Shown here one piece after another: positions 2,743 to 60,523 of a stretch of DNA of 61,040 nucleotides. Origin of the DNA: a virus (Duplodnaviria; Caudoviricetes); IMG/VR virus record IMGVR_UViG_3300033153_003434, positions 1-61,040 of that record; one strand, written 5' to 3'. The translations under genes and the position numbers were made by a program. Numbering within the stretch: position 1 is the first letter of the stretch; each line of letters begins with the position of its first letter. The notes beneath the pieces were generated by a model that saw only the letters and a list, made by a program, of their open reading frames with translations, had not been told where the DNA came from and did not search any database.

Positions 2743-3498
2743 ATGACAAAACTAGAAAGAATTTACGAAGAAACATTAAATGAGCAAATGTTAAATGAAA
2801 AGATGTTTAATATCGATAAAGAAAAATTACAACAAGCTATAAACACTATAGCCCCCAAAATACAAGCTAATAAAATAATACAACATGCGAAAAGTTTTAT
2901 GCCGTTTGTAAAAAAATTTACTAATAGTGATGGTAGTGTAAATATGGATAATATACCATTTATGCAATTAAAAGAAAACATATTTAGTGATTTTGCTGAT
3001 TGGTATGAAAATGATGGTGATTGGAATAGTAAAAAACAGTTCTTGGGTAGTATGCTAAAAAAAGTATTTTTATTTCCAGCTTGGTTCATCTCAGAAACTA
3101 TAAGGGTTATAATTAAATGTTTTCAGGGTGGTGACTATACAATATCTGGTATCTTAACTTTATTATTAGCCATGTTTATAACACTTATTGGTTTTTTAGG
3201 TACTGTTATATACAAGCACACGGAACACGGAATAAATGGAATTGATAATGGTATTGTTATATCAAAACCATATAGAGCAGAATTAGATAATATTAGAAAA
3301 ATTAGGGTACAAGTGGGTGATAATATTTTTCACATTCCTAATAACAATATACATATTTGGAGTGTTGATGTAAAAGATGTTAATTCTGATAGAACAGAAC
3401 AATGGATTACCACAGATGAAAATATAAGAAATACAGTAGTAAAAGGTGATACCATTAATATAAATGATTACACTTGGGTGGAAAACAAAAATCGTTAA
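2743..3498 (+). CDS. Hypothetical membrane protein with capsid-targeting-like leader
   Basis: Starts MTKLERIYEETLNE; hydrophobic segment ISGILTLLLAMFITLIGFLGTVIY. Confidence 0.7.
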   Translation: MTKLERIYEETLNEQMLNEKMFNIDKEKLQQAINTIAPKIQANKIIQHAKSFMPFVKKFTNSDGSVNMDNIPFMQLKENIFSDFADWYENDGDWNSKKQFLGSMLKKVFLFPAWFISETIRVIIKCFQGGDYTISGILTLLLAMFITLIGFLGTVIYKHTEHGINGIDNGIVISKPYRAELDNIRKIRVQVGDNIFHIPNNNIHIWSVDVKDVNSDRTEQWITTDENIRNTVVKGDTININDYTWVENKNR

Positions 3499-8764: not shown

Positions 8765-9137
8765 AGAACTTTTAGAAAAATATAAATATATGTTAGAAGA
8801 TGACACATTGTTTAATGATGATGTAAGAATATTGAAGTTTTATGACCCTTTATACCAAACAGTTGGTATGGGGCATTTTAAAGAACTTTACAAGCCATCT
8901 GATGTTAAATGGGGTAATCGTATAATCGTTGATGATTATATGGGTATACCAGGCTCGTATGTTGAAATAAAAGGTATTAAATACCACAAGTTGTATTCCG
9001 TTAAAGCCGTCAGTAATCAAACAGGTAATATAACATATGGTTTATCACCTAAAGACCAATATTCAACAAGTCAAACATTTCAAAGGTGTTACCAATTGAT
9101 TAGAACAGAAAACAGAACTGCTATAAAGGATTTATAA
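8757..9137 (+). CDS. Hypothetical protein with leader
   Basis: Starts MNKELLEKYKYMLED; overlaps both neighbours. Confidence 0.6.
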   Translation: MNKELLEKYKYMLEDDTLFNDDVRILKFYDPLYQTVGMGHFKELYKPSDVKWGNRIIVDDYMGIPGSYVEIKGIKYHKLYSVKAVSNQTGNITYGLSPKDQYSTSQTFQRCYQLIRTENRTAIKDL

Positions 9138-9358
9138 TGACAAAACTAACAGAATTATATGAAGAAGTATTAACAGAAAGTAATAATGAAGAACTTAGAA
9201 CAACACTATTTCAAATGTTAGTGGATTACCAAGATGAAAAGGGTTATAAATTTGACGAAGAAATGGATGTAAATGACTTTAAAAATCTTTTAGAACGAGT
9301 ATATAATAAAGGTTTAGATGATGGGTGGGAACAAGGTATGGATGATTCAAGAAAATAA
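9137..9358 (+). CDS. Small acidic protein with capsid-targeting-like leader
   Basis: Starts MTKLTELYEEVLTE; AGGA RBS. Confidence 0.65.
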   Translation: MTKLTELYEEVLTESNNEELRTTLFQMLVDYQDEKGYKFDEEMDVNDFKNLLERVYNKGLDDGWEQGMDDSRK

Positions 9359-14005: not shown

Positions 14006-14323
14006 ATGAAAAAACTAACCGAAATGTACAACGAAATAATAAATGAAAAAAGAGAAATATGTCAAATATGTAAACAAAATGTATCAAGAAGGAGTTGTTA
14101 CCTGTGTGGTATATATGTGTGTAATGATTGTAGTGTTGTTTATCATAGCAACGAATTGGGACAAGGACCTAAATTATGTTTAAAATGTGCAGTTGAAAGT
14201 GATAAACACGAAAATGCTGGCGGGTTTGATTATAGAACGGCAACTAAATATACATACACTACTGTAAATGGTGATGAAATAACAATAAATCCAACTAATT
14301 ACCAAATAATAAAAAGGATATAA
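14006..14323 (+). CDS. Small Zn-finger protein with capsid-targeting-like leader
   Basis: MKKLTEMYNEIINE then four CxxC pairs. Confidence 0.7.
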   Translation: MKKLTEMYNEIINEKREICQICKQNVSRRSCYLCGIYVCNDCSVVYHSNELGQGPKLCLKCAVESDKHENAGGFDYRTATKYTYTTVNGDEITINPTNYQIIKRI

Positions 14324-18761: not shown

Positions 18762-18989
18762 ATGATGACAAACTTAAATAATTTATATGAAGAAGCATTA
18801 GCAGAAGGAACTGGTAGAATAACAGCCGAAGATTTAAATCTACTTCACGATTTAAAAATTTTAAAAAGTAGAATTTTACAAGAATTTGGAAACGATGACC
18901 ATCTCGCAGATAGATTTCACGAAATAGAAATAAGAATGGTCGATTTGTTTGGATATAGTAATAAAGTTGATAAAAATAGACGTTCTTAA
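18762..18989 (+). CDS. Small protein with capsid-targeting-like leader
   Basis: MTNLNNLYEEALAE; AGGA RBS. Confidence 0.65.
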   Translation: MMTNLNNLYEEALAEGTGRITAEDLNLLHDLKILKSRILQEFGNDDHLADRFHEIEIRMVDLFGYSNKVDKNRRS

Positions 18990-29238: not shown

Positions 29239-29276
29239 GTAATTTATAAAATTTGTGGTTATTTTTTTAGTAATTT

Positions 29277-29294
29277 TATAAATAAATATAAATA
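29277..29294 (+). promoter_or_regulatory. Tandem late promoters TATAAATA x2
   Basis: Motifs at 29277 and 29287. Confidence 0.65.
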
Positions 29295-29317
29295 ACAATA
29301 TAACAAGGAAATTACTA

Positions 29318-29782: not shown

Positions 29783-29800
29783 TTAAAATAAGGATATAAA

Positions 29801-30544: not shown

Positions 30545-30557
30545 CAATCGGATTTAA

Positions 30558-33310: not shown

Positions 33311-33336
33311 AAAATTAAAATTACAAGGAGCTTATA

Positions 33337-34014: not shown

Positions 34015-34056
34015 AAACTTCTCTGAAATATTAAAGATTAACAAAGGATATTATTT

Positions 34057-36540
34057 ATGAAATATGCAAGTAGCATTGAATTTAATGAAAAAAATGTAAA
34101 GGCTGTTCAAAGAGGTAGTGCCGAGCTAGACACTACCATTGGTATGCTTTTAAAAGCAAACTTTGGACCATCTGAAACATTAGTAGAAATCACATCAGAA
34201 TCCGAGTTGGTGGAAACGTTTGGATATCCTACTGAATATAACTACTTAGATTGGTTTAACGCTGCAGGATTTCTAAAACACTCTTCATCATTACATGTGG
34301 TAAGACCACTTTCAAGTATAACAAGTGCTAAAAATGCTTGTTTAATATTTGGAGATGGAGCACAACCTGGTGATAGTACAGCTACTAAACTATATAATGA
34401 ACAAACAGCAAACTTATCGTTAGAAGATAGCACAATAACACCTATCGATTCTGGCAAATTAAACATTTATAATAAATGGGCTGGTAATTTAAACGATATA
34501 TCAATAATGATGTGTACTTCTGAAACTGAATGGACTGAAAGTATTTCTGGTAGAGATGTATTTGACGAAACTATAGCTTTAGAATCTACTATATATACAA
34601 GAAGTACATTACCAACAATTGTAGAAGTTGTTGAAGGTGTAACGATTTCACATTTCAAAAACAAAGACAAAGTTGTTGTAGCAACACCTACAATAACTGG
34701 CGATGCTGTAGTTGAAATGGGATACTATATATATTATGCTAATTATACAACTACAACAACTGCTGAATGGGTAGCAACTACAAACCAAATAACTGATGAT
34801 GATAGAGTATTCGTAACTAGTAAAAATTTAGCTTATACATTCGACCACACATTTACAAGCGCAACTGCATTTAATAATTATTTAACCGATACAACAGAAG
34901 AAATTTATGCTAGTGAAGTAGCATTACCCGATGAAAGTGATTATAATTATAACGATAGAGTTCTTGTGAGAACTAATGATACACCTGATGTGTTTACTGT
35001 ATGGTATAATAATGAAGGTACTTGGACAACAACAGGAACAACTTTAGCAAATGCTGATAAGATATTTGAAATAAAAACACACAGCTATTCCGATTTGACT
35101 ATAGGTACTGGCGGTGGTGCTGGTACTGATACTTTAACTTTTACGCCTGATGCTGTAAGTGAAATTGATAATGCTGATAGCATGACACAAGATACAGATA
35201 TTACAATTTCAGATGAAATTTTAATTAAGAAAGATGCTAATGGTATAATTACAAATTCTGTGGTTAAATATATGGATGTAGGAATGTATAATAAAAGTGA
35301 TTACAGCCCTTTAACATATAGAGACATATTACCAACAAAACCAGATTTTGCACATAATGAGATTGGTTTAGTAGTTCTTAGAACAACTAGAGATGGTTGG
35401 TATCATGTAGAAGAAACATTTGTTAATTCGTTAACAAGTACTTCATTAAAAACTAACAGCAAATCAAATTATATAAGTACCAATGTAAACAATTATTCTA
35501 ATTTAATTTATATGAAAGCAAGTTCAGGTTTAAACACTTATGATTATATTCCAGATTTGTATAATAGTGTTTACTATACTAATATAGAACTTACAAGTAC
35601 TGACGATGTCGATTATTCTAACATAACAGATTACACAACACTATACAATGTTGCTACTGGAGTTTTTGGTAAAAATGGATATTTCCAACCTGAAATTTTA
35701 ATAGGTTATGATTGTGGTGATTCAACACTTAATAGTGGATACCTTGATGCAATGTCTTTAATAGCAGAAGATACTGGAATGTCTTTAGCTGTTGTTGGGG
35801 CTACAAGGTCAACACCAGGTCAAACAGAAACAGAAGCAAACGATGAAATTATCGAGAACTTAGGTAATGATAGAGATAACACATCATTTGGTGGATTAAC
35901 AGAATTCAACACTTATACATTCCCTATTGGTACTATGAAGAAATTCTATGACCAATATAACGATAAATATCGTTGGTTATCTGTAAATGGTGATGTAGCT
36001 GGTATGATGGCATATAACGATGCTATAAACGGACCACAATCAGCAGTTGCTGGTTATAATAGAGGTGAATTTACGAACTATGCACGAATGTTGTTTGATG
36101 CAAGAATAAACCAAAACTCTTTAAGTAGAAATGGTATAAATGCTATTATTAAAGAGGTTGATGATGGTAACTACTATTTGTTTGAATATTTAACAAACAC
36201 TACTATGGATGAAATTACAAAAGAAGCCAATGTTAGAAGAATGGTCATCAAATTTAAACATTTACTTAAAAATATATTAAAAGGTAATTTCTTTGAGTTT
36301 AACAATAGAGAAACCAGAGATATCACACTATACCAAATATCTGGAATATTTGAAAAATATAAAGCAAATGGTGGTTTACATGATTATAAACTTATTTGTG
36401 ATGAAACTAATAATACGGCTGAAAGAATAAATGCTAATGAGTTTTATCTGGATATACGACTACAACCTAACAGATTAATTAAACATATTACAATCAATAT
36501 CATAAATTATGATATGGGTTTAAATATTAAAGAACTATAA
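34057..36540 (+). CDS. gp18: Tail sheath protein paralog D (T4 gp18-like), closest to paralog B
   Basis: FGYPTEYNYLDWFNAAGFL, YDQYNDKYRW, ANVRR, ICDETNNTAERINANEF. Confidence 0.92.
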   Translation: MKYASSIEFNEKNVKAVQRGSAELDTTIGMLLKANFGPSETLVEITSESELVETFGYPTEYNYLDWFNAAGFLKHSSSLHVVRPLSSITSAKNACLIFGDGAQPGDSTATKLYNEQTANLSLEDSTITPIDSGKLNIYNKWAGNLNDISIMMCTSETEWTESISGRDVFDETIALESTIYTRSTLPTIVEVVEGVTISHFKNKDKVVVATPTITGDAVVEMGYYIYYANYTTTTTAEWVATTNQITDDDRVFVTSKNLAYTFDHTFTSATAFNNYLTDTTEEIYASEVALPDESDYNYNDRVLVRTNDTPDVFTVWYNNEGTWTTTGTTLANADKIFEIKTHSYSDLTIGTGGGAGTDTLTFTPDAVSEIDNADSMTQDTDITISDEILIKKDANGIITNSVVKYMDVGMYNKSDYSPLTYRDILPTKPDFAHNEIGLVVLRTTRDGWYHVEETFVNSLTSTSLKTNSKSNYISTNVNNYSNLIYMKASSGLNTYDYIPDLYNSVYYTNIELTSTDDVDYSNITDYTTLYNVATGVFGKNGYFQPEILIGYDCGDSTLNSGYLDAMSLIAEDTGMSLAVVGATRSTPGQTETEANDEIIENLGNDRDNTSFGGLTEFNTYTFPIGTMKKFYDQYNDKYRWLSVNGDVAGMMAYNDAINGPQSAVAGYNRGEFTNYARMLFDARINQNSLSRNGINAIIKEVDDGNYYLFEYLTNTTMDEITKEANVRRMVIKFKHLLKNILKGNFFEFNNRETRDITLYQISGIFEKYKANGGLHDYKLICDETNNTAERINANEFYLDIRLQPNRLIKHITINIINYDMGLNIKEL

Positions 36541-43802: not shown

Positions 43803-44294
43803 ATGAAAAAGAAGATATTTGAAAAGTATGAAGAAATAATGGATAATTACTATGATAATATGTCAGATGAAGATATTATCAGAGAACAATATGGTAATGG
43901 GTATAGTAGTAGTGGTTGTTGTACTAATCTCGAACTGTTTGAAGCTTATTCAAGCCTTTTAATTGAAAAGTTGAAGGGTGATATAGAAAACAAAGAGTTT
44001 AGCGATAATGGGGGGTATTACGGGGGTGTATACAAAGGTAAGAAGTTCTCTGCTGGGTATTCTACACAAAACTTCGGTAAACAAATAGAAAACAAAGATG
44101 AATTGGAAATGAATCAAAAATATAATATATATGTTGAACATCACGATATGTGGCTTATGGGTTATAGATTAAAAGCTGCTGGTATCGGAATGTATAGATT
44201 TAAATATGATAATAAATCAGAAACTGAGAAATTTAACATAAAAAGACTTTACAACAACATAAAAAAAGGTTATATTATATCATATTCAAATTAA
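43803..44294 (+). CDS. Hypothetical protein with long leader
   Basis: MKKKIFEKYEE..IIRE..LFEA..LLIE; GAGGA RBS. Confidence 0.6.
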   Translation: MKKKIFEKYEEIMDNYYDNMSDEDIIREQYGNGYSSSGCCTNLELFEAYSSLLIEKLKGDIENKEFSDNGGYYGGVYKGKKFSAGYSTQNFGKQIENKDELEMNQKYNIYVEHHDMWLMGYRLKAAGIGMYRFKYDNKSETEKFNIKRLYNNIKKGYIISYSN

Positions 44295-44329
44295 TTTTGT
44301 ACCTAAATCAAAAAAAATGAAAAAAAGAC

Positions 44330-44358
44330 TTGACAAAGAACTGATAATGTGTTATCTT
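44330..44358 (+). promoter_or_regulatory. Sigma70-type promoter
   Basis: TTGACA-17 nt-TATCTT with upstream A-tract. Confidence 0.7.
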
Positions 44359-44456
44359 AAAGATGACAATCGGATGACAAGTTTATTTAATAATAGATTT
44401 AGAAGGGAAATTTTTTAAGTAACAACACAAACAAAACTTTAAATAAGATAATACAA

Positions 44457-45020
44457 ATGAGTAAGAAGACATCGAACATATCTCCAATAGTACAAAACTC
44501 AATAACTAAAGAGAAACTTTCAAAAGCAAATGCTTATATGGAACAAGAGTTAGACTCTCTTGAACCAACACATAATTTTGATGCTACAGAATATGGAAAA
44601 GTTATCGTTCACGAATATGTAAAGAAAGACGGTGTTATACATATTATAGATAATAGTGGTGAAAATTTCAGGGTTTATGAAATCCTACCAAATGGTTCTT
44701 ATTCAATGAAAAGTACTAATGATGGTGATGTTTCAAAAACAAATGGTGATGATTTAATTATAGTAAACGGTAAACTTACAATAAAAACAAATGGAGATAA
44801 ACTATCTATTAATGTGGATGGTGGAGATTCTCCTGTTATGGAGAGAGCAGTATCATTTGATAAACTAAAAGATAAGTTAGAAGAAATAATAACAAACATA
44901 ACCACATTTGGGTTATCAGCGTCACCAGGCAGTCCTATAACATATACGACTATGCCACCAATAACTATAACAGAAAATGATATTTGTTATGATAATATAG
45001 AAATAAACAAAAACGCATAA
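44457..45020 (+). CDS. T4 gp5 C-terminal-like baseplate spike fragment
   Basis: YGKVIVHEY..GVIHIIDNSGENFRVYEILPNGSY followed by 8-residue xxNGD beta-helix repeats; no OB-fold or lysozyme domain. Confidence 0.6.
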   Translation: MSKKTSNISPIVQNSITKEKLSKANAYMEQELDSLEPTHNFDATEYGKVIVHEYVKKDGVIHIIDNSGENFRVYEILPNGSYSMKSTNDGDVSKTNGDDLIIVNGKLTIKTNGDKLSINVDGGDSPVMERAVSFDKLKDKLEEIITNITTFGLSASPGSPITYTTMPPITITENDICYDNIEINKNA

Positions 45021-45027
45021 TAGATTT

Positions 45028-45047
45028 TATAAATAATGATATAAATA
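45028..45047 (+). promoter_or_regulatory. Tandem late promoters TATAAATA x2
   Basis: Motifs at 45028 and 45040. Confidence 0.65.
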
Positions 45048-45075
45048 AATAATAATTAAATTATAAGGAAACAAA

Positions 45076-45591
45076 ATGATTAACAACAGAGATAGAAATA
45101 GTCTTAGAGAGTTTTACGAAAAAACTCATCCTACAAAGAAAGTTTCAGAAGCATATGATGATGCTAAAACAGAATTTTCAGAACCACATGCAATTCAAAA
45201 CCTTAAAGGTGAAAAAGTTCTTGGAATTCAAGTAGGTAATAAAACATATTACTTTACAGCAGATGTAGGTAAAAAGTATATCGCTTCTATGCAGAAAGTT
45301 ATTGATAACTTAGGTGGAGATAGCGGTCAAGACTTTGAAGATGAAGACGAAGATGAGTTTGGTGGTGAATTCTCACCAGAAGATGAAGAAAATATGCAAA
45401 GAAACCCTGCTATAATGGGTGAAGGTATTCTTAGAGAAGCTTATACTAAAGCTGCTACAGAAATAGCATATAATGAAGAAGGTAAAAGATTAAAACTTCA
45501 TTTTATTAATTTAGATGATAACATGTCTAAACTATTAAAATCTAAGTTTGGCAAGTATTATGATGAAGTAACTGATATTATACATCTATAA
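45076..45591 (+). CDS. Probable internal head protein
   Basis: SLREFYE, VSEAY, ILREAY putative processing sites; late promoter. Confidence 0.6.
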   Translation: MINNRDRNSLREFYEKTHPTKKVSEAYDDAKTEFSEPHAIQNLKGEKVLGIQVGNKTYYFTADVGKKYIASMQKVIDNLGGDSGQDFEDEDEDEFGGEFSPEDEENMQRNPAIMGEGILREAYTKAATEIAYNEEGKRLKLHFINLDDNMSKLLKSKFGKYYDEVTDIIHL

Positions 45592-45596
45592 AAACC

Positions 45597-45625
45597 TTGA
45601 CATTTTCAAAAACATTGTTTATATT
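45597..45625 (+). promoter_or_regulatory. Sigma70-type promoter
   Basis: TTGACA-17 nt-TATATT. Confidence 0.7.
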
Positions 45626-45660
45626 GTCAATGTAACCGAAAATTAAAAGGGAGATTAAAA

Positions 45661-45900
45661 ATGAAAAGTATGAGAATTGTAACAGTAATAGATATTAAAG
45701 ACCTTAGAAGCTTCAAATTGTCAGACAACATGATTTGTGTTCTTGATGATGGTGCTGTAGCTTCAAACTTAGAATTTGACAGTAGCGATGAAGCATTTGT
45801 AGAATTAGAATCAATTCTTGATGCTGTAAGAAGAGGTAAGGATAGAGTAATAATCAGTACCATACAAAAAATAGAAGATAAAAATGAGTCTAAAGACTAA
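45661..45900 (+). CDS. Hypothetical protein
   Basis: 79-aa ORF with GGGAG RBS. Confidence 0.6.
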   Translation: MKSMRIVTVIDIKDLRSFKLSDNMICVLDDGAVASNLEFDSSDEAFVELESILDAVRRGKDRVIISTIQKIEDKNESKD

Positions 45901-46744
45901 AATATTTTTAACTATATTAATAATACTGGTAGGTGTCGTAACTTGCCAGTATTTTTATAATAAGAATTTAAAAGAAGACCTTCATAACTCTGCTATGAAG
46001 ATTTCTGTTCTAGAGCAAAACCAACATGCTTTAAATGATTCTATTGCTTTTAAGTCTGATAGTGTTGCCGTACTTCATTCGTTTATAGGCGAACAAGAAG
46101 AATTGAATAAATCATTAGACAAACTCTATAATGATATTAAAAACACTACCGACCAAAATATTAAACGTCTTCGTGACCAAGTAGGTTTACTCGAAGGTGA
46201 AATTACATTTAAAGAAAAAGTTATAGACAGTTTGTTGGTTAATACTGACCATGCAGAAGTTACAGATAGCACTATTATGGTACCAGTTTTATATCATAAT
46301 ACGGATATGGGATTGAAGATTGATGCTTACACTGTCGGTAATTTTGTGGATAAAACTGCATATGTTCATTGGAATGAAATTAAAGTTACACTCCCTAAAT
46401 TACGAATAGGTTTGGTTTACGAATCATCCGACAGTACTATTGTTGCTATGATAGAATCTAATAAAGAAATCACAAAATTCAAAACTGTCATGTCTGACGA
46501 TTTATACAAATTGATTATAAACAACACAAGTCCGAAAAAGACATGGTTAAATTATATTGGTATTGTATCTGAATTAGAAGTTGTTGCCGAACCATATTTA
46601 AATCTTATGGCATTTGGTGAGTATAAAGACTTCTATATATTATACGGAAAGAGATTTGATGTTTATGAAAAATTATCTAATAAAGATATTTATAGATTCG
46701 GTTATAAAATGAGTTTAAAGAAAATTACAAGTTGGATACGATGA
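45884..46744 (+). CDS. Membrane-anchored coiled-coil protein (possible spanin)
   Basis: N-terminal TM IFLTILIILVGVVTC, coiled coil, beta-rich C-terminus. Confidence 0.5.
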   Translation: MSLKTKIFLTILIILVGVVTCQYFYNKNLKEDLHNSAMKISVLEQNQHALNDSIAFKSDSVAVLHSFIGEQEELNKSLDKLYNDIKNTTDQNIKRLRDQVGLLEGEITFKEKVIDSLLVNTDHAEVTDSTIMVPVLYHNTDMGLKIDAYTVGNFVDKTAYVHWNEIKVTLPKLRIGLVYESSDSTIVAMIESNKEITKFKTVMSDDLYKLIINNTSPKKTWLNYIGIVSELEVVAEPYLNLMAFGEYKDFYILYGKRFDVYEKLSNKDIYRFGYKMSLKKITSWIR

Positions 46745-46992
46745 AAGAATATGATGATATATTAAAAGAAGAAAGAAGGCAAGGTGACACTATTACAAAA
46801 TATTTCATTTGTGATAGACACAGACGAAATATCGATGCTGAATATATGTTTAGTTTTATGTTACACAAATCAAAACCATTTCATTATTTCGATACTAAGG
46901 AAGAAGCAGAAGAAGCTATGAGAAAAGGTTTTTATGATGATTCAGATTATAGTGTTATTAGTGTAGTGTTAACAGATACAAGATTTGATTAA
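46741..46992 (+). CDS. Small protein with leader
   Basis: MKEYDDILKEE; FDTKEEAEEA motif. Confidence 0.55.
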   Translation: MKEYDDILKEERRQGDTITKYFICDRHRRNIDAEYMFSFMLHKSKPFHYFDTKEEAEEAMRKGFYDDSDYSVISVVLTDTRFD

Positions 46993-47003
46993 AAAGGATT
47001 TAA

Positions 47004-47687
47004 ATGAATAAAATTACAAATATATATAATGAAACGGTTAATGAAGAAAACCATATATATACTGTGAATGAATATAGTGAGTTTCATTTATTTGAAGCTT
47101 CTTTTGGTAGAATTAATGACCATACTAAAAAAGGTTATATTATAATGACTGCTTTTAGAAGGGAAAACACTTTAGAATATAATATGAGTCATAATGATGA
47201 CCTTAAGGAAGATTTAAAAGACCTCGCATTGGGTTATTTCGAAATTGATGGTGCATATGAAGAAAAGGATATTGATATTAATGACGATAATATAACAAAA
47301 ACGGGTGATGTGCATAATGAAATTTCACTGTTTATTCCGTATAGAGATGTGTATACATATGATGAATTTAAAAATATTGCTATGGATTTAGCTAAAAGAT
47401 ATAAACAACAATCGGTTGCATATTCAGAAGGCGAAGGACAACCAATATATGAATTATATCAAAATGGTAAATTATTAATTATCGGGCATAAAATAACATT
47501 TGATAAAGTTTTCGATGATGAAAAATCTGGTTATATACCTAATAATAACGACAAAACTATATATCATATTTATTCTCAGTTGAGAAGTGGTAGACATAGC
47601 GGTAGAAGATTTGTTATAGAAGGTGTACGAATACCTAATGGTGCAGACCAATCTTATAATTTTAAAATTAATAATCAATTATGGTAA
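47004..47687 (+). CDS. Probable S-adenosylmethionine lyase (T3 SAMase-like) with capsid-targeting-like leader
   Basis: IIMTAFR..NMS..L..GAYEE..NEISL..LAKRYKQQSV matches the order and spacing of T3 SAMase motifs as recalled (VSAFR..NMS..GCYRE..EEKTV..LACNEWEQDCV). Confidence 0.7.
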   Translation: MNKITNIYNETVNEENHIYTVNEYSEFHLFEASFGRINDHTKKGYIIMTAFRRENTLEYNMSHNDDLKEDLKDLALGYFEIDGAYEEKDIDINDDNITKTGDVHNEISLFIPYRDVYTYDEFKNIAMDLAKRYKQQSVAYSEGEGQPIYELYQNGKLLIIGHKITFDKVFDDEKSGYIPNNNDKTIYHIYSQLRSGRHSGRRFVIEGVRIPNGADQSYNFKINNQLW

Positions 47688-47720
47688 AATAAAATATATT
47701 ACATATTTTTAAGAAAGTGC

Positions 47721-47749
47721 TTGACAAGAGCACTTTTTTTGTCTATCTT
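47721..47749 (+). promoter_or_regulatory. Sigma70-type promoter overlapping a terminator-like hairpin
   Basis: TTGACA-17 nt-TATCTT inside aaagtgctt-gaca-agagcacttttttt. Confidence 0.65.
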
Positions 47750-47776
47750 TAACATATACATTATTTAGGAGTAACA

Positions 47777-48415
47777 ATGAGTAAAATAACAATTGTCGAT
47801 GCTGACAATAAATTCCTTTTAACCAGTTTCGGTAAAGGTATTTACATGCGTTTGTGGGCTGATTATACTAATAAGGAATACTATAAAGATTATACTTATG
47901 ATAATTCATACAAGCGAATAATTTTAGCAGGTAAGATGGCATCAGGAAAAGATTACCTTAGAAATAAATTAGTGGAACAAGGATTTAAAAAAGATATATC
48001 GTACACATCAAGACCTATAAGGGAAAATGAAGTAGAAGGTAACGATTATTATTTTATAACAACTAATAAATTTCAAGAAATGATAAAGAACCAAGAGTTT
48101 TTTGAATATACAGAATTCTGTGGTTGGTATTATGGAACAACAAGAGAAGCTTGGGATAGCTGTAATGTGTTTATTATGAATCCTTATGGTTTAAATCATT
48201 TAAAAGATAAAGATAAAAAACAATCGTTAATATTATATTTAGATGTACCTTTAGATATAAGGTTAAAAAGATTAGAAAAACGAGTTATGGGGTATGATAA
48301 CATTGAAAGAAGAATTAGTACAGACTTTCACGATTTTATTGGTTTACCTTATACTTATAAATTAAAAGACTTAAAAATAACAAAATTAAATTTCCCTGGT
48401 GATTGGGATAAATAA
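47777..48415 (+). CDS. gmk: Guanylate kinase
   Basis: P-loop GKMASGKD; TSRPIRENEVEGNDYYFI and YYGT GMP-binding signature. Confidence 0.9.
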   Translation: MSKITIVDADNKFLLTSFGKGIYMRLWADYTNKEYYKDYTYDNSYKRIILAGKMASGKDYLRNKLVEQGFKKDISYTSRPIRENEVEGNDYYFITTNKFQEMIKNQEFFEYTEFCGWYYGTTREAWDSCNVFIMNPYGLNHLKDKDKKQSLILYLDVPLDIRLKRLEKRVMGYDNIERRISTDFHDFIGLPYTYKLKDLKITKLNFPGDWDK

Positions 48416-48428
48416 ACAGGAGTAATAG

Positions 48429-48605
48429 ATGGAATTAAGTGATAATCTTAAAAAACGATTAAAAAGTGATATAACACCACAATGGTGGGATGATACTGGT
48501 TATGTTATTTATTGTGATTTAGCTCATAAATTAATCGAAAAAGGATTTACGGAAGATGATGCCATAGAATTTCTTAGAATGGCATATAGTGCAACATCAA
48601 TTTAA
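48429..48605 (+). CDS. Small hypothetical protein (58 aa, below ORF-track cutoff)
   Basis: AGGAG RBS; MELSDNLKKRL...SATSI*. Confidence 0.6.
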   Translation: MELSDNLKKRLKSDITPQWWDDTGYVIYCDLAHKLIEKGFTEDDAIEFLRMAYSATSI

Positions 48606-48617
48606 TAAGGATATATA

Positions 48618-48890
48618 ATGACAGAAGGAAAAAGATTACAAATGATACAACAATCTTTAACACAAGAAAGAATACCAATATGTGTTGTGTATGTTTTAGA
48701 AAGAGAAAAGAAAATATATCACATAGCAGGTGTGGATAAACCACCTTCACAAGAATTATTGAATGATGTAGAATTGGGTTTACGAAGAAGTGTTGATTGG
48801 GAATTGATAAAACCAGTATTATCAGAATTAAAAGTAGATATTGTTAAAACTGATATATTAGCAGAAACATATAAAGAATACATACTATAG
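48618..48890 (+). CDS. Hypothetical protein
   Basis: 90-aa ORF, AGGA RBS. Confidence 0.6.
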   Translation: MTEGKRLQMIQQSLTQERIPICVVYVLEREKKIYHIAGVDKPPSQELLNDVELGLRRSVDWELIKPVLSELKVDIVKTDILAETYKEYIL

Positions 48891-48899
48891 GAGTAAAAA

Positions 48900-49205
48900 A
48901 TGAGTGATGGCGTAACAGATTCTAATAGAGAATTTGAAAAAACAAAAAAAGAAACAATTGATGAGAGAGACAAATTAAAAGAAAAATTAGAAAATATCAT
49001 CAAAGAACAACAAGACAAAATTGAAAGTTTGAATAAAATAAACGGTGATAGAAATGGTTTAATTTTATATTTTGTTAATAATTATTTGAGATATCCTACT
49101 GAAAGAGGTTTTAAACAATTAACAACAGTTCTCGAAGCTGATTTTATGGATGTGAGTCTTAAAAAAATGAAACAAGAACAGGATAATTTAAAGAAAGAAC
49201 AATAA
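48900..49205 (+). CDS. Hypothetical coiled-coil protein
   Basis: 101-aa ORF, AGGAG RBS. Confidence 0.6.
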   Translation: MSDGVTDSNREFEKTKKETIDERDKLKEKLENIIKEQQDKIESLNKINGDRNGLILYFVNNYLRYPTERGFKQLTTVLEADFMDVSLKKMKQEQDNLKKEQ

Positions 49206-49210
49206 AAGAC

Positions 49211-49239
49211 TTGACATTCTGATTTATTTGTTTTATATT
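49211..49239 (+). promoter_or_regulatory. Sigma70-type promoter
   Basis: TTGACA-17 nt-TATATT; ATG lies 7 nt downstream of the -10 box (likely leaderless mRNA). Confidence 0.7.
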
Positions 49240-49246
49240 GTTCTGT

Positions 49247-49690
49247 ATGAATGATGAAAATAAAAATATTGATGTTACCAAAATAATCACAGCTTTTAAA
49301 CAAGTTTTTGGTTATTTTGGTTTTTCTATTTTATGGCTTAAAGATAAAATTGTAAGTATATGGAACTGGTTTACTGGGTATCCTGATAGACTGTTTGCTT
49401 TTTTTATAACATTATTTATAAGTATATTCGTTATTGGCATTCCATTAGCTATTACATGGGATAATATGGAAGAAATCGACCATTATGATTATGAAAGAAT
49501 TGAAAAAATGTTAATAAAATATCCTAAAATAAAACCATTAGTAAAAGAATGTTTCGAGAATGATGGTTATATATCTGAATGGGAAGAAGGTACAATACGT
49601 GATGTTTATAAGGTTGAAGAAGATAGATTAGAAGAAATAGAATTACAAAAACAAAGAAATATAATACAAAAACGATTAACAGGAGGCTAA
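49247..49690 (+). CDS. Membrane protein, paralog of 50147..50491
   Basis: TM segment then YERIEK..YPKIKPLV..NDGYISEWE. Confidence 0.6.
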   Translation: MNDENKNIDVTKIITAFKQVFGYFGFSILWLKDKIVSIWNWFTGYPDRLFAFFITLFISIFVIGIPLAITWDNMEEIDHYDYERIEKMLIKYPKIKPLVKECFENDGYISEWEEGTIRDVYKVEEDRLEEIELQKQRNIIQKRLTGG

Positions 49691-49691
49691 A

Positions 49692-50147
49692 ATGAATGAC
49701 AAGGTTTTACTTGATAAGGAATACGTTACAAAAATAACGATGTGTGTAGACGATGGTGGAAAAGCTAATGAACATTATAAGTGGGTCGAAAAAGGAAACC
49801 ACGATGACCGAGTGAAAGTATATTTTAAAACTTTTTTTGGTAAGGAAGATTGGAAATGGGGTATTGGTGATGTTGCCCATGATGATGGTTGGTATTATAA
49901 TGATTGGAATAACGATACAAAATTTAAAAGTGATAGTTTTAAAACAGATGAAGAATTTTTAAAATTCATTGGTATAAAAGAGCATTATATTAAAGATAAT
50001 ATATTATACACAAAACCTACATTAACACTTATAATAAAACATGAAGGAAATAACGAAACACATGTATATTACTTTGATACGATGAAAGAATTAAATGAAC
50101 GAATGGTTGTTATACAAGATAACTTTAAAAATTTAGTGGTAGTGTAA
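49692..50147 (+). CDS. Hypothetical protein
   Basis: 151-aa ORF, AGGAGG RBS. Confidence 0.65.
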   Translation: MNDKVLLDKEYVTKITMCVDDGGKANEHYKWVEKGNHDDRVKVYFKTFFGKEDWKWGIGDVAHDDGWYYNDWNNDTKFKSDSFKTDEEFLKFIGIKEHYIKDNILYTKPTLTLIIKHEGNNETHVYYFDTMKELNERMVVIQDNFKNLVVV

Positions 50148-50503: not shown

Positions 50504-52699
<2,196 letters not shown>

Positions 52700-52707
52700 G
52701 AGAAAAT

Positions 52708-53079
52708 ATGGCTAAATCTAAGGATTTTGGTGGTTATTATGGTACTGATTATATATCAGCACCTAAAATTTATGAATCGATAGAAGATGAGAAAAAGGTT
52801 TGGAATAGCAAAAAAGCTACCCCGTTAACAGAGGTATATAACGAAATAATTTCAGATTTTCATCATAGTAAACTTAGAAAAACTGACCCTAAAACTATTC
52901 TTACTCTAGAAGATATAGTAGGAAATGTTAAAGTTGCGAGTGGGAAAGGTGAAACAAAATGGGTTATAGAAAGAGAATTTAAGAAAGATGTTATAATTCC
53001 TAACACAGATGTTAAAATTCAAAACTTTGATGATATTAAAGAAAAAATTAGAACCGCACCATGGGAGTTAATGTTATAA
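52708..53079 (+). CDS. Hypothetical protein
   Basis: AGGAG RBS; internal LTEVYNEII motif resembling the leaders. Confidence 0.6.
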   Translation: MAKSKDFGGYYGTDYISAPKIYESIEDEKKVWNSKKATPLTEVYNEIISDFHHSKLRKTDPKTILTLEDIVGNVKVASGKGETKWVIEREFKKDVIIPNTDVKIQNFDDIKEKIRTAPWELML

Positions 53080-57779: not shown

Positions 57780-57855
57780 TGCGGGGTAGACCAGTTGGTT
57801 AAGTCGGTAGCCTCATAAGCTACGCATTTCAGGGGTTCGAATCCCTTTCCCGCAA
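57780..57855 (+). tRNA. tRNA with CAU anticodon (Met or Ile2)
   Basis: Acceptor TGCGGGG/TCCCGCA; GTAGC-CTCATAA-GCTAC; TTCGAAT T-loop; TATAAATA at 57763. Confidence 0.9.
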
Positions 57856-57881
57856 CTAAGAACTAATAACAAGGATTAAAA

Positions 57882-58022
57882 ATGAAGAAAACTAAAAAAC
57901 CTAATATTCTAAAAGAAGTAGTTGGTGAACCAACTAAAGGTAGAATACTAAACGAATCAGAAGAAAAAGTTGTAGATAGAAACAAGAAAAAGAAAATAAT
58001 TAAAGAAAAGAAAACAACTTAA
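57882..58022 (+). CDS. 46-aa basic peptide with three [IL]xE motifs
   Basis: AGGA RBS; MKKTKKPNILKEVVGEPTKGRILNESEE...IIKEKKTT*. Confidence 0.55.
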   Translation: MKKTKKPNILKEVVGEPTKGRILNESEEKVVDRNKKKKIIKEKKTT

Positions 58023-58135
58023 ACAAAAACAATTATAAATAAAGGTATATGATGAAAAATAGTAAAACATATTATAGTGAAGCGGAGAACACAATGTAAG
58101 AGTTTTGTCTATTTATTTTATACCAAAAATTTATT

Positions 58136-58165
58136 AAAGCTCTGAACATTTCAGGGCTTTTTTTT
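58136..58165 (+). terminator. Intrinsic terminator after a 16-codon ORF, upstream of tRNA-Ser
   Basis: aaagctctgaa-cat-ttcagggcttt followed by T tract. Confidence 0.7.
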
Positions 58166-58183
58166 ATTTGGGGCTGTAATAAA

Positions 58184-58268
58184 GGAAGAACGGAAATAGG
58201 TGTATCACACTCCCTGCTAAGGAGTCACTCGTGAAAGCGAGTTGAGGGTTCGACCCCCTCTTCTTCCT
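58184..58268 (+). tRNA. tRNA-Ser(GCU)
   Basis: Acceptor GGAAGAA/TTCTTCC; ACTCC-CTGCTAA-GGAGT; long variable arm; T arm GAGGG/CCCTC. Confidence 0.88.
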
Positions 58269-58296
58269 CAAATTGAAATAGAATTATAATTATAAT

Positions 58297-58379
58297 TGGT
58301 AGGTATGCAAGTAGTCAAAGCAATCGGTCTGTAAAACCGCCGCCTTCGGGATTCGTGGGTGCATGTCCCACCCTACCAA
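58297..58379 (+). tRNA. tRNA-Tyr(GUA) with atypical T-loop
   Basis: Acceptor TGGTAGG/CCTACCA; CGGT-CTGTAAA-ACCG; variable arm; T-loop TGCATGT. Confidence 0.8.
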
Positions 58380-58385
58380 CAAATC

Positions 58386-58476
58386 GGGGATAAAGGGTAC
58401 TGATGGAAGTACTTTATTCTGACAAGAATAAAAACAGCAATTAAAAATTAAGTGGGTTCGATTCCCACTATCTCCG
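58386..58476 (+). tRNA. Atypical tRNA-like RNA (GAC-containing 8-nt loop, G3:U70, ACAGCAA in variable region)
   Basis: GGGGATA/TATCTCC acceptor; D stem GTAC/GTAC; TTATT-CTGACAAG-AATAA; T arm GTGGG-TTCGATT-CCCAC. Confidence 0.6.
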
Positions 58477-58495
58477 CTAATAATTAAAATAATAC

Positions 58496-58524
58496 TTGAC
58501 ATTATACAAATAAAGTCTTATATT
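58496..58524 (+). promoter_or_regulatory. Sigma70-type promoter
   Basis: TTGACA-17 nt-TATATT. Confidence 0.72.
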
Positions 58525-58555
58525 GTTATAGTTAATTGAAATAGAATGAATATAA

Positions 58556-58649
58556 GGGATACTTACAGCAAACAAAACAAGTGCTATTGGTTAGCAATCT
58601 TTCTTAAAAAAAGACTAAACGGTTCAATTCCGTGTTATATAGTATCCCG
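58556..58649 (+). ncRNA. ACAGCAA-stem RNA element, copy 4, enclosing D-, anticodon(UAA)- and T-arm-like hairpins
   Basis: GGGATAC-tt-ACAGCAA..TGCTA-TTGGT-TAGCA..TCTTT-CTTAAAA-AAAGA..ACGG-TTCAATT-CCGT..GTATCCC-G. Confidence 0.7.
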
Positions 58650-58656
58650 ACTTTAT

Positions 58657-58729
58657 GCTCCCATCTTATAACTGGTTAGTAAATGCGGTTTTCATCCGCA
58701 TAATCGGAGTTCGAGCCTCCGTGGGAGTA
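58657..58729 (+). tRNA. tRNA-Glu(UUC)
   Basis: Acceptor GCTCCCA/TGGGAGT; TGCGG-TTTTCAT-CCGCA; T arm CGGAG-TTCGAGC-CTCCG. Confidence 0.88.
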
Positions 58730-58735
58730 CACATG

Positions 58736-58772
58736 AAATAACCAAGATATACAACACATCTTGGTTATTTTT
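58736..58772 (+). terminator. Terminator hairpin after tRNA-Glu
   Basis: aaataaccaagat/atcttggttattt 13-bp stem plus T tract. Confidence 0.65.
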
Positions 58773-58870
58773 GTTCGTTAATATATATTATTTTTAAGAA
58801 ACTTTAAATCATTAAGTAACCTAATGGTTCAATTTTATAAATAAGTATATAAACTATTTAAGGATTGAAA

Positions 58871-59965
58871 ATGAAGTGTAAAAAATGTGGTATAGAAAAT
58901 GATGGTTCTTTTGGTTCAGGAAAGTTTTGTTCGAGAAAATGTGCTAATAGTAGAACTTGGACAGACGAAGATAAACTAAAAAAAAGTATATCTGCTAAGA
59001 ATTCCGAAAAGGTTAAGAAAGCCAATAACATAAACGTAATTCTCCGAATAGGAAAACAATCAGTAGAACGAATAATCAAACACTGCCCTATTTGTGGGAA
59101 AGAATTTAAAAGAATACCATCTAAAGAATCTGTATATTGTTCTAAAAAATGTTGTAATAAAAATTCAGGTGGTTATAGAGAAGGAAGCGGTAGAAGTAAA
59201 TCAGGATATTATAATGGGGTTTATTGTGGTTCTACATATGAATTGGTTTGGATAATATATAGATTAGACCACGATTTAACAGCTAATAGGTTTGATGGTT
59301 ATATATTATACGGTAAAGATAATAGAAAATATTTTCCTGATTTTATAGATGATGATACCGTTATAGAAATAAAAGGTTATGTTACCGAAAAAACCAAACA
59401 TATAATAGAACAAAAGAAAAAAGCAGTGTTGAGAGAAGGATATGATTATAAAATTCTTTTTAAAGTAGATTTAAAGGATATGTTTAAATGGGTTAAAGAT
59501 AATTATGATTATAAAAGACTTGCTGAATTGTATGATGATTATAAACCTAAATACGAATATGTTTGTTTAACTTGTGGTGTAAAATTTAGTGTAGATAAAA
59601 AAAGAAAAACCGAAAGAGTTTTTTGTTCTAAAAAGTGTATAAGACCTATTAATACTAAAGTTCTTAATGGGTTAAAAGGTAAAACATACGAAGAAGTGTT
59701 TGGTGAAGAAAAAGCTAAAGAAATAAAGAAAAAATTATGTGAATCAATTAAAAAAGAAAGAATTTTACATCCGAGAAAATGTTTAGAAGAAACAAAAGAA
59801 AAAATTAGACAAAAACTTATCGTCACACATATAAATAATTGTAAACAATGCGGTGTAGAATTTACAACAAATGGTGATAGAAAAAGAAAAAAGTTGTGTG
59901 ATAATTGCGGGTTTAAATATACTAATAAAAAATATATTAAAAAAGAGCTTGACATTATGATGTAA
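58871..59965 (+). CDS. Multi-Zn-finger PD-(D/E)XK homing-type endonuclease within the tRNA cluster
   Basis: CKKC..FCSRKC, CPIC..YCSKKC, STYE..YFPDF..IEIKG, further CxxC fingers; TATAAATA at 58836. Confidence 0.78.
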   Translation: MKCKKCGIENDGSFGSGKFCSRKCANSRTWTDEDKLKKSISAKNSEKVKKANNINVILRIGKQSVERIIKHCPICGKEFKRIPSKESVYCSKKCCNKNSGGYREGSGRSKSGYYNGVYCGSTYELVWIIYRLDHDLTANRFDGYILYGKDNRKYFPDFIDDDTVIEIKGYVTEKTKHIIEQKKKAVLREGYDYKILFKVDLKDMFKWVKDNYDYKRLAELYDDYKPKYEYVCLTCGVKFSVDKKRKTERVFCSKKCIRPINTKVLNGLKGKTYEEVFGEEKAKEIKKKLCESIKKERILHPRKCLEETKEKIRQKLIVTHINNCKQCGVEFTTNGDRKRKKLCDNCGFKYTNKKYIKKELDIMM

Positions 59966-59977
59966 AATGCTTATATT
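59949..59977 (+). promoter_or_regulatory. Sigma70-type promoter
   Basis: TTGACA-17 nt-TATATT upstream of tRNA and tmRNA. Confidence 0.72.
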
Positions 59978-59991
59978 GTTAATGTTATATC

Positions 59992-60065
59992 GCGGGTGTA
60001 GAGTAGTGGTCAAACTCATCAGATTTTCATTCTGGGAAGCGGGGGTTCGAATCCCCTCACTCGTA
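59992..60065 (+). tRNA. tRNA with UUC anticodon (Glu) on a dissimilar body
   Basis: Acceptor GCGGGTG/CACTCGT; D stem GAGT/ACTC; TCAGA-TTTTCAT-TCTGG; GGGG-TTCGAAT-CCCC. Confidence 0.82.
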
Positions 60066-60146
60066 CTAAGGCTAAGTAACTCCTCTTCTTATGAATGAAA
60101 CTTAGCTAATGTTCTTTGAAATAGAAATTAATCCTAATTAAAAATT

Positions 60147-60503
60147 GGGGGTGTTCAGGATTCGACAGATTTGAACGAAGTATGATAAATCACTTCGAAG
60201 CTTGAGGGTAGCTTCGTTAATATAACCCTCACATAAGATAAATGCAAATTATTCTTATCAAATGGCTGCCTAAAAGGTGGCTCAATCTTTATAATAGTAT
60301 TCGCTTCCCGCTATGTAAAAGATTGCCGTAAGAGGAAGATAGCTAACTAAATTTTCATGTTTAATATTTAGCGAACTTTTAAAACATGACGTCTGAGGAA
60401 ATTTGCTCGTTTAACAAACTTGGGCTGTAAAGGAAATGAGATATGAGTGTAGAGTTTACATATAACGCATATTTGGACACGGGTTCAATTCCCGTCACCT
60501 CCA
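60147..60503 (+). ncRNA. ssrA: tmRNA, predicted tag ANYSYQMAA*
   Basis: 5' GGGGGTG..GGATTCGAC; acceptor with G3:U70 (GGGGGTG/CACCTCC-A); tag ORF 60244..60273; 3' GGACACGGGTTCAATTCCCGT. Confidence 0.92.
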
Positions 60504-60523
60504 CAACTATATAAACTATGGAA

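Follow-up and report, generated by a model that had tools for sequence, protein, structure and literature searches.

Does a T4-like phage load an enzyme that destroys S-adenosylmethionine (SAM) into its own head, so that the SAM of a newly entered cell could be attacked before phage transcription? The question is raised by an open reading frame (ORF) at positions 47004..47687 of the IMG/VR record IMGVR_UViG_3300033153_003434, a stretch of 61,040 bases that was analysed at its full length and is called the window below. SAM lyases split SAM into 5'-methylthioadenosine and homoserine lactone, and anti-restriction cargoes carrying a capsid targeting sequence (CTS) are textbook knowledge for T4. 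An earlier sequence-only reading had quoted this ORF exactly as we find it (plus strand, 227 amino acids (aa)) and had proposed that it encodes a probable SAM lyase with a packaging leader, possibly delivered from the capsid. Here we find that the protein belongs to the SAM-lyase family and that its first 14 residues form a modular tag, shaped like the T4 CTS, which is shared with four unrelated proteins of the window; packaging of the enzyme is the reading that we favour, with some reserve.

A phmmer search of 1.84 billion representative proteins returned 212 relatives of the lyase protein at E<=1e-3 and 37 at E<=1e-10. An alignment (A2) was made of those 108 members among the best 150 relatives that are 150-240 aa in length, the other 42 being longer multi-domain forms or fragments, and 105 of the 108 individually match the Pfam family S-AdoMet_lyase (PF23780; best E 9.3e-18). 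The lyase protein itself matches PF23780 over residues 46-161 and profile positions 1-105 of 133 with 28.2 bits (E 2.1e-6; gathering score 28), and the corresponding match on DNA scores 28.1 bits. When the A2 profile was compared with 177,635 distinct sequences from the Protein Data Bank (PDB), T3 SAMase (7ock_L, E 3.3e-8) and Svi3-3 (6zm9, E 1.4e-3) took the top two places, and all other sequences had E>0.1. In the profile alignment to 7ock_L, the ..SAFR..N(M)..H.. segment pairs with T3 VSAFRSNLCDEVNMSRH and G-x-Y with T3 GCY, while the invariant Glu corresponds to T3 E68 and Y-x-Q-[DEQ]-S-V to T3 EQDCV; the order of T3 motifs that the sequence-only reading had given is thus correct. A tblastn search with the lyase against 50,697 GenBank phage records gave no match at E<=0.01, blastn of positions 44000-50000 gave only a 92-base guanylate-kinase match, and a related-locus search of viral contigs yielded 21 pattern matches with the protein and 136 with a two-sequence alignment, none of which was confirmed. 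A separate search for homologous proteins found one relative with the single query and 12 with a profile.

The fold agrees with this assignment. An AlphaFold2 model built on A2 has a mean predicted local distance difference test score (pLDDT) of 75.8, with 10-residue block means of 78-98 for residues 31-170 except for 62 in the 91-100 loop, while the blocks covering residues 1-30 have means of 40-53 and residues 1-7 and 20-30 fall below 50. Foldseek against the PDB placed chains of T3 SAM lyase or Svi3-3 at all of ranks 1-7 (best 8bb1_E, E 5.2e-5, target template-modelling score 0.69). The Foldseek-independent program VIA-align gave 7ock_L a Z of 12.7 with a root-mean-square deviation of 2.8 A over 139 of its 152 residues, making it the sole chain at Z>=8 among 48,161, followed by 6zm9_A at 7.9 and the first unrelated fold at 6.1. 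The structural comparison with T3 SAMase and Svi3-3 that the sequence-only reading had named as a check therefore comes out in its favour. The C-terminal extension of the protein has lower model confidence, yet as far as model residue 209 it can still be superimposed on the T3 SAMase C-terminal part.

Homotrimers with active sites between the subunits are regarded as characteristic of the SAM-lyase family. In Svi3-3, three residues are described as strictly conserved among proven SAMases, and the conserved ligand-binding set is given as Gly56, Tyr58, Glu69 and Gln104; Tyr58 packs on the sulfonium, Ser71 contacts the ribose, and the carboxylate is held by the backbone of both Glu105 and Ser106 (PMC7877911). 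Activity is abolished by E69Q and E69A, whereas Y58F costs fivefold and E105Q threefold (PMC7877911). Mapping of these residues onto the lyase protein through HMM alignments of the A2 profile, with conservation counted over the 108 A2 members, showed that the ligand-binding residues have counterparts that are kept throughout the family (Table 1), Tyr58 being represented by Y, W or F in 100 of the 108. Pfam family, family profile, fold and key residues all agree, so that the SAM lyase which the sequence-only reading had called probable is, in terms of family membership, essentially certain. That the enzyme acts on SAM is likely, as judged by homology.

We then turn to the N-terminus. The first 14 residues of the lyase (MNKITNIYNETVNE) recur at the N-termini of four other ORFs of the window (Table 1), starting at an offset of 0-1 from the Met in all five, and follow the general form M-x-K-[LI]-x-x-h-Y-x-E-x-h-x-E. 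Past this tag there is no relationship among the five proteins, pairwise BLASTP comparisons giving E 0.21 at best. Searched as degenerate DNA, the 14 codons have 4 exact matches in the window against 0.00 expected from 100 dinucleotide-preserving shuffles, and the loose core Y-x-[ED]-x-h-x-E, used as a regular expression in six frames, has 11 matches, five of them at offset 7-8 from the Met of a tagged ORF. With a position-specific scoring matrix (PSSM) built from the five tags themselves, which displays their separation and not an independent significance, the tags score 42-48, no other N-terminus exceeds 22.6, and the maximum over 15,889 internal positions is 31.6. Given that synonymous codons of the tag differ between the copies, selection acts on the peptide and not on the RNA. 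All five genes have AAAGGAT-type ribosome-binding sites at the same distance. The tag is disordered in the AlphaFold2 model, and alignments with lyase homologues do not begin before about query residue 19-28, indicating that this phage has added the tag on its own.

Two further ORFs bear on the tag. The highest internal PSSM score of the window (31.6) belongs to a Met-less copy, ATPLTEVYNEIISD, at residue 36 of the 123-aa ORF 52708-53079 after the capsid gene; this ORF may represent a tagged gene that has decayed or been fused, or its start may have been called wrongly. The 83-aa ORF 46741-46992 directly upstream of the lyase starts with MKEYDDILKE, which has the form of the T4 10-mer CTS rather than of the 14-mer, with Y at position 4 and L-K-E at positions 8-10; judged by this start, it could be a sixth packaged cargo.

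The sequence-only reading had let the leader run down to HLFE. Residues 1-14 make this leader real as an element shared by five ORFs, but it is composite, as residues 24-31 (YSEFHLFE) belong to a segment that is conserved across the lyase subfamily and sits just before the first helix (E-S-S-L-S-R-V-W-Q-H in most members). In A2, position 29 is L/I/V in 89, position 31 is Glu in 86 and position 32 is S/A/T in 75 of the 108 members. T4 gp21 cuts after L/I-x-E (PMC9026906), and L29-F30-E31/A32 of the lyase has this form and lies in the disordered segment of residues 20-30, making it a possible second maturation site. Counts of motif length were made over 111 family proteins in which a regular expression located the h-x-E motif, and 20 of them have only 10-13 residues up to and including the motif Glu. 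Several of these 20 resemble T4 N-termini strikingly (MKTFSEFVNE/ASLGR, MKRFTEFLNE/TTLSR and MNTFEKYLCE/ASFGR), and further examples from GenBank phages are MKTFSEFLGE/SGLSR (Paraglaciecola Antarctic GD virus 1 gp48) and MKDFDSFLEE (gp6 of cyanophage S-CREM2). In the T4 10-mer CTS, targeting depends on residues 4 and 7 and processing on residues 8 and 10 (PMC9026906); the same positions in these family N-termini are F/Y, F/Y, L/I/V and E.

The genomic setting is in keeping with a T4-type head. The record, with 29.7% G+C, is classed as linear and ~50% complete (CheckV estimate), and by its genes it is a fragment of an uncultivated T4-like myovirus. It encodes a Gp23-type major capsid protein, which on sequence grounds puts the phage in the T4 head-assembly class, although the Gp23 model matches the protein only at residues 87-128 and 396-443. 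These short matches in a 731-aa protein with a (PE)n run indicate that it carries large insertions. So far as computation goes, the packaging leader of the sequence-only reading is borne out by a modular tag on five unrelated cargoes, its T4-CTS shape and the Gp23-type capsid, and by analogy with T4 we hold it somewhat probable that the tag directs the lyase into the capsid.

From this we infer the following pathway. The precursor would consist of the tag (residues 1-14), a disordered linker ending in a second [LIV]-x-E motif (residues 15-31) and the lyase domain (residues 32-227). If it works like the T4 CTS, the tag would dock the precursor into the prohead scaffolding core, and a gp21-type prohead protease would remove it after Glu14 and/or Glu31. 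The mature enzyme would stay in the head and be ejected with the DNA, so that SAM breakdown would precede phage transcription, and the loss of SAM would starve SAM-dependent host defences such as type I restriction-modification and BREX. The SAM pool of a cell of the size of E. coli is of the order of 1e5 molecules. Svi3-3 turns over 9.5 SAM per second (PMC7877911), and at such a rate a hundred injected subunits would consume about 1,000 SAM per second, which would lead to depletion in minutes if resynthesis were slow. Because depletion on a scale of minutes would be useful but not instantaneous, early synthesis from a sigma-70-like promoter could complement injection. For the whole chain of a SAM lyase that is tagged, packaged and injected, we regard the chances as evenly balanced.

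Table 1. Features of the lyase gene, its active-site codons and other elements of the window. Conservation is given for the A2 members.
Feature	Position	Strand	Remarks
Lyase codons 1-14, MNKITNIYNETVNE	47004..47045	+	phage-specific tag; putative capsid-targeting propeptide ending V-N-E
Lyase codons 15-31	47046..47096	+	linker and subfamily segment YSEFHLFE; ends in [LIV]-x-E-[SA]
Lyase codons 32-170	47097..47513	+	SAM-lyase core: N-terminal helix and PII-like alpha/beta sandwich
Lyase codons 171-227 and stop	47514..47687	+	C-terminal extension; subfamily motif YS-L--G------F-[FI]EG---P
G83 (Svi3-3 Gly56)	47250-47252		core; Gly 104/108
Y85 (Svi3-3 Tyr58)	47256-47258		core; Y 53, W 39, F 8 of 108
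E106 (Svi3-3 Glu69, T3 E68)	47319-47321		core; 106/108
S108 (Svi3-3 Ser71)	47325-47327		core; 103/108
Q135 (Svi3-3 Gln104)	47406-47408		core; 106/108
Q136 (Svi3-3 Glu105)			family D 59, E 39, Q 4
S137 (Svi3-3 Ser106)			S 49, A 27, G 18
AAGGA ribosome-binding site	46994-46998	+	5 bases before ATG of lyase gene
Intrinsic-terminator-like hairpin	47711-47739	+	12 pairs, then T run; closes lyase unit
Sigma-70-like promoter TTGACA-17-TATATT	45597..45625	+	11/12, consensus match only; in gap before four-gene run
Tagged gene MTKLERIYEETLNE...	2743..3498	+	251 aa, cargo unrelated to lyase; TATAAATA 54 bases upstream
Tagged gene MTKLTELYEEVLTE...	9137..9358	+	73 aa, acidic; within run of large unannotated plus-strand ORFs
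Tagged gene MKKLTEMYNEIINE...	14006..14323	+	105 aa, Cys-rich; three TATAAATA boxes 20-38 bases upstream
Tagged gene (M)MTNLNNLYEEALAE...	18762..18989	+	75 aa, tag from second Met; directly after large terminase gene
Gp23-type (T4-type) major capsid protein	50504..52699	+	731 aa; PF07068 51.7 bits; phrog_138
T4-type large terminase	16373-18751		792 aa

The tag was also sought outside the window. A second record (G001; 61,978 bases, 30.2% G+C) has four gene starts with the tag, against 0 with a reversed-pattern control. These tags (MEKLETLYEETLKE, MNNLYRLYEELLKE, MTNLQELYEEVLNE and MSKINDIYKQLLSE) all end in L-x-E and precede cargoes of 96, 190, 83 and 174 residues, respectively, which match window proteins over the tag only and are otherwise unrelated to them. 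All nine tags of the two records have L, I or V at position -3 and E at position -1. G001 encodes T4-type replication, baseplate and neck genes, and it seems to cover the complementary part of a genome of similar kind. It was rejected as a close relative with orthologous tagged genes, since only 3 of the 65 window ORFs are shared and the cargoes are alike only over the tag; given that the shared ORFs are homing endonucleases, the grounds for kinship between G001 and the phage are GC content, the tag and the classes of genes. The 190-aa tagged protein of G001 (C1:3881-4450, minus strand), which is Cys-rich, contains a second internal tag-like copy, VLRLYENILNED, ~100 residues in, as if two tagged cargoes had been fused. 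A 'peptidase' beside two of the tagged genes of G001 was considered as a prohead protease and rejected, as it is M28/M42-like.

When is the lyase made? Its gene is the last in a run of four (45661 / 45884 / 46741 / 47004) with spacings of -17, -4 and +11 bases, the stop codon of the preceding ORF sitting 11 bases upstream, which suggests that 45661-47687 is one transcription unit ending at the terminator. The loop of the terminator hairpin contains a TTGACA box for the next gene (guanylate kinase). On the plus strand, 15 of the 25 copies of TATAAATA, which we take to be the T4 late-promoter box, lie in intergenic DNA (7.8% of the window), compared with 1 of 5 on the minus strand. Such boxes stand upstream of the sheath gene 23238, of gene 15423 (ahead of the terminase genes) and of the tagged genes 2743 and 14006, and those nearest to the lyase unit are at 45035-45047, one gene further upstream. 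Near-perfect TTGACA-17-TATATT boxes lie in intergenic gaps with -10 hexamers ending at 45625, 49239, 53525, 58524 and 59977; a further one, on the minus strand with its hexamer ending at 29065, falls within a doubtful ORF of 54 aa. Together the two kinds of box suggest that this phage has two promoter classes, as T4 does. An assignment of the lyase to early or late expression from its promoters was dropped, because sigma-70-like boxes also precede the run with the capsid gene and hence allow no conclusion on timing; judged by the boxes, the lyase could be made early, late by read-through, or both.

Several results weigh against a packaged, tag-directed SAM lyase. On the side of the enzyme, the protein's own PF23780 match is barely at threshold (28.2 against 28), and a single-sequence PDB search with it found nothing relevant (top ThreeFoil, E 0.017), so that the family assignment rests on profile and fold. 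Q136 is the only departure from the ligand-binding set, the position being Asp or Glu in 98 of 108 relatives, and it matches the Svi3-3 change E105Q that cost threefold (PMC7877911). The loop between Y85 and E106 has 20 residues, where T3 and Svi3-3 have 10, and the model is less confident there. On the side of the leader, four of the five window tags end in L/I-x-E and that of the lyase in V-N-E. In addition, 8 of the 111 family members keep h-x-E with only 3-8 residues before the Glu (MNE/TKLGR, MFLQE/SSLSR). Since the motif is kept with almost no N-terminal extension, it is at least partly, and on this evidence probably, structural at the family level. The cut after HLFE that the sequence-only reading implied is accordingly plausible and no better supported than a cut after VNE14, and HLFE may have a structural role in addition to, or in place of, that of a cleavage site. 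Outside this lineage the DNA pattern of the tag is unspecific: a scan of IMG/VR gave 100 stretches, each on a different contig, roughly half of them falling on a motif (MRKLGDIYEELF...) inside an unrelated conserved ORF and about twenty resembling true gene starts in low-GC contigs. G001 shares with the window only three ORFs, all of them homing endonucleases, and the PF23780 lyase has no match in G001-G004. As for the machinery, neither the Peptidase_S77 prohead protease (PF03420) nor the T4 portal (PF07230) has a match in the window, which, given that the record is an incomplete fragment, is not a negative against T4-type head assembly. PF03420 likewise has no match in the five other tag-bearing records G001-G005 (G002 being 84% complete), a scan that ran without a positive control and in which 14 control genomes also gave no match. 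Finally, the lyase unit is headed by a sigma-70-like promoter with no TATAAATA directly upstream, as would fit early cytoplasmic expression like that of T3.

This last point leads to the most serious alternative, in which the protein is an ordinary cytoplasmic SAM lyase like that of T3, expressed from the promoter at 45597-45625 and unpackaged, with the tag acting as some other interaction or assembly signal or as a signal for translation or stability. The promoter arrangement suits it, as do the T3 precedent, where SAMase is the first protein expressed on infection (PMC8406200), and the lack in this record of a protease or portal that would tie the tag to head assembly. A cytoplasmic role, however, does not readily account for the company that the tag keeps, because four of the five tagged genes lie behind TATAAATA or directly after structural genes (2743 and 14006 behind boxes, 18762 after the terminase gene, 9137 in the run of large unannotated plus-strand ORFs). 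The tag matches the T4 CTS in form and position, its codon differences mean selection on a peptide, and an enzyme of the same subfamily is present in S-CREM2 virions, as discussed below. The boxes at 45035-45047 could moreover read through into the lyase unit, there being no convincing terminator between. We therefore rate an unpackaged lyase as unlikely, while giving it real weight.

The remaining alternatives concern what the enzyme does, packaged or not. A lyase of the same fold could act on SAM-AMP, the messenger of type III-B CRISPR systems, and serve as an anti-CRISPR in the manner of AcrIIIB4, a candidate protein of that kind. The fold, the Glu and the Gln of SAM lyases recur in SAM-AMP lyases, and one phage enzyme cleaves SAM-AMP and not SAM (PMC12255297); the long loop between Y85 and E106 falls, besides, in the region (T-loop) that differs between enzyme types. 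The family profile, by contrast, finds T3 SAMase and Svi3-3 and no SAM-AMP lyase at E<=1, and the SAM-AMP lyase 9gad_F appears at Foldseek rank 26 (E 0.31, probability 0.47) compared with ranks 1-7 for SAM lyases. The SAM-lyase G-x-Y motif is also present, the Tyr of which packs on the sulfonium in Svi3-3 (PMC7877911). As the substrate is not readable from similarity, action on SAM-AMP stays a minor rival of low probability. It is similarly improbable that a weak or inactive enzyme blocks the host MetK by forming heteropolymers, as T3 SAMase does, so that SAM would fall through a block of its synthesis. T3 SAMase, the closest solved relative, was seen in complex with MetK (7ock, 8bb1), the model superposes through its C-terminal part (model residues 35-209), and position 136 has Gln in place of the usual acidic residue. 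All strictly conserved ligand-binding residues are nevertheless intact, and E105Q costs only threefold in Svi3-3 (PMC7877911). Stoichiometric inhibition would fit poorly with tens to hundreds of capsid copies (20-200 for T4 CTS fusions; PMC9026906). Binding of MetK would in any case not exclude catalysis, as T3 SAMase does both.

Other features of the window complete the picture of the phage. The large terminase has an Intein_splicing match at residues 159-236, before the ATPase domain, which at 28.4 bits is below the cutoff of 35.8 and may mark an intein or its remnant. There are three full-length tail-sheath paralogues (19352, 23238 and 34057); a fourth gene, 31475, is sheath-like and carries a DUF2793 domain, and two DUF7487 homing endonucleases (25544 and 30558) are interleaved with the sheath genes in the region 19352-36540. 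A tail tube gene is also present, and the window encodes several homing endonucleases in all. A tRNA cluster at 57780-60504 comprises Met, Ser, Leu and two Glu tRNAs. ARAGORN in addition reports a 'tRNA-???' at 58386-58477, the anticodon of which (gaca) has four bases, and calls a tmRNA at 60147-60504 with the tag peptide ANYSYQMAA*.

How far does the association of lyase and targeting sequence extend? With family member P0113 as query, tblastn matched 8 Campylobacter phage records (CP220 group, Eucampyvirinae) and a Paraglaciecola virus, and with P0008 it matched 6 cyanophage records. The C-terminal domain of a cyanophage S-WAM1 protein matches PF23780 with 33.3 bits, and this protein matches 363 records of cyanophages and marine viruses; its gene sits between the small terminase gene and other genes of the structural region. 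The S-WAM1 protein (P090810_099, 2053-3471) has 472 aa and is very lysine-rich, with the lyase domain as its C-terminal third and a CTS-like KSFKEFLEE directly before that domain, and other cyanophages have a lyase-only form. Longer relatives show two architectures. Five members (P0004, P0018, P0020, P0039 and P0085) are apparent tandems, in which a lyase-like N-terminal part is followed by another lyase domain at the C-terminal end, and five others (P0002, P0013, P0014, P0044 and P0092) have a conserved N-terminal domain (..YWISPKG..H...V...P..FG.....) followed by the lyase. A tentative and rather doubtful extension would be that the h-x-E-S-S-L-S-R subfamily consists of widespread internal head proteins of the T4 superfamily, a class so far unrecognised. 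If this were true, injected SAM lyases would be common in T4-like phages, including cyanophages, Campylobacter CP220-like phages and the present lineage. The MK-[FY]--[FY][LIV]-E N-termini (S-CREM2 gp6, Paraglaciecola gp48, P0113, P0073, P0039) would then be capsid targeting sequences, the [LIV]-x-E/[SA] before the helix would be the prohead-protease maturation site, and the phage described here would have placed a lineage-specific 14-residue tag in front of an ancestral one.

Compared with the known enzymes, the lyase is nearest to T3 SAMase (gp0.3; 7OCK, 8BB1), its best match by both profile and structure, with which it shares SAFR...N...H, G-x-Y, the catalytic Glu and Q-[DEQ]-x-V, although identity in the structural alignments is only 11-16%. 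T3 is a podovirus with a different head-assembly system. Its SAMase has 152 aa and no N-terminal tag, whereas the protein described here has a 31-residue leader, an extra N-terminal helix (residues 34-41) and the longer loop between Y85 and E106. Svi3-3 (6ZM9, 6ZMG, 6ZNB), the second-best match by profile and fold, has no leader either; its G56, Y58, E69, S71, Q104 and S106 all have counterparts in the lyase, while its E105 is replaced by Gln136 and its Ser50 by Gly77 (Gly in 95 of 108 family members). The SAM-AMP lyases (the C. botulinum CorA-associated enzyme, 9GAD, and the phage candidate AcrIIIB4) have a PII-like trimeric fold, and the phage enzyme is likewise fused behind an N-terminal domain; W64, C66, T110, T112 and Y122 are named as residues specific to their substrate (PMC12255297).

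For the leader, the nearest precedent is T4, whose three internal proteins are all injected anti-restriction factors recognised by an N-terminal signal (PMC12373910, PMC3012670). IPI*, IPII, IPIII and Alt of T4 likewise carry a short N-terminal tag on unrelated proteins with an aliphatic-x-Glu protease site at its end. IPII and IPIII start with MKTYQEFIAE/A, IPI with MKTFKEFTS...ITE/A, and the tag described here shares the Y-x-E-h-h-x-E core with MKTYQEFIAE but has 14 residues, four of them extra at the N-terminus (M-x-K-[LI]-...), compared with the T4 10-mer. That 10-residue CTS is sufficient for packaging and gives 20-200 copies of a fusion protein per head (PMC9026906), and ~370 packaged copies are reported for LacI (PMC10229621). 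The cargoes differ, in that T4 internal proteins bind and inhibit type IV (GmrSD) nucleases whereas the cargo here is a metabolic enzyme without homology to them. A counter-defence preloaded in the capsid acts before the incoming DNA is attacked; in T4 such a role is established for inhibitors of type IV nucleases that work by binding. A preloaded enzyme that removes SAM would blunt several SAM-dependent systems at once, including type I and III restriction-modification and BREX.

The closest parallel to the whole proposal is the T4-like cyanophage S-CREM2, in which the ORF6 product, a 'SAM hydrolase', was detected in CsCl-purified virions with 19 peptides and 26.3% coverage in 2023, and the authors of the study suggested that entry of gp6 with infection may shield phage DNA from restriction-modification (PMC10665884). 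Given this detection and this proposal, the packaged SAM lyase that the sequence-only reading put forward is not a new idea. S-CREM2 gp6 belongs to the subfamily of the present lyase (hhalign 99.0%, E 8.9e-18, 162 columns; PF23780 70.1 bits) and shares the E-S-S-L-S-R helix. It differs in having 414 aa with a long basic low-complexity C-terminal half and a leader of the T4 10-mer type (MKDFDSFLEE) instead of the 14-mer. The S-CREM2 paper discusses neither a targeting leader nor a cleavage site (PMC10665884), and the literature searches made here found no work linking SAM lyases to a capsid targeting sequence. What is added by the present analysis is, first, a newly defined lineage-specific tag, by which nine cargoes on two fragments of an uncultivated T4-like lineage are flagged as likely to be ejected, and second, a link of this tag with both the T4 CTS and the N-termini found in a large subfamily of SAM lyases. 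A third gain is a rationale at the level of sequence for the presence of a SAM hydrolase in S-CREM2 virions, which had so far lacked an explanation. The analysis extends, without overturning, the current understanding of cargoes delivered by T4-type heads.

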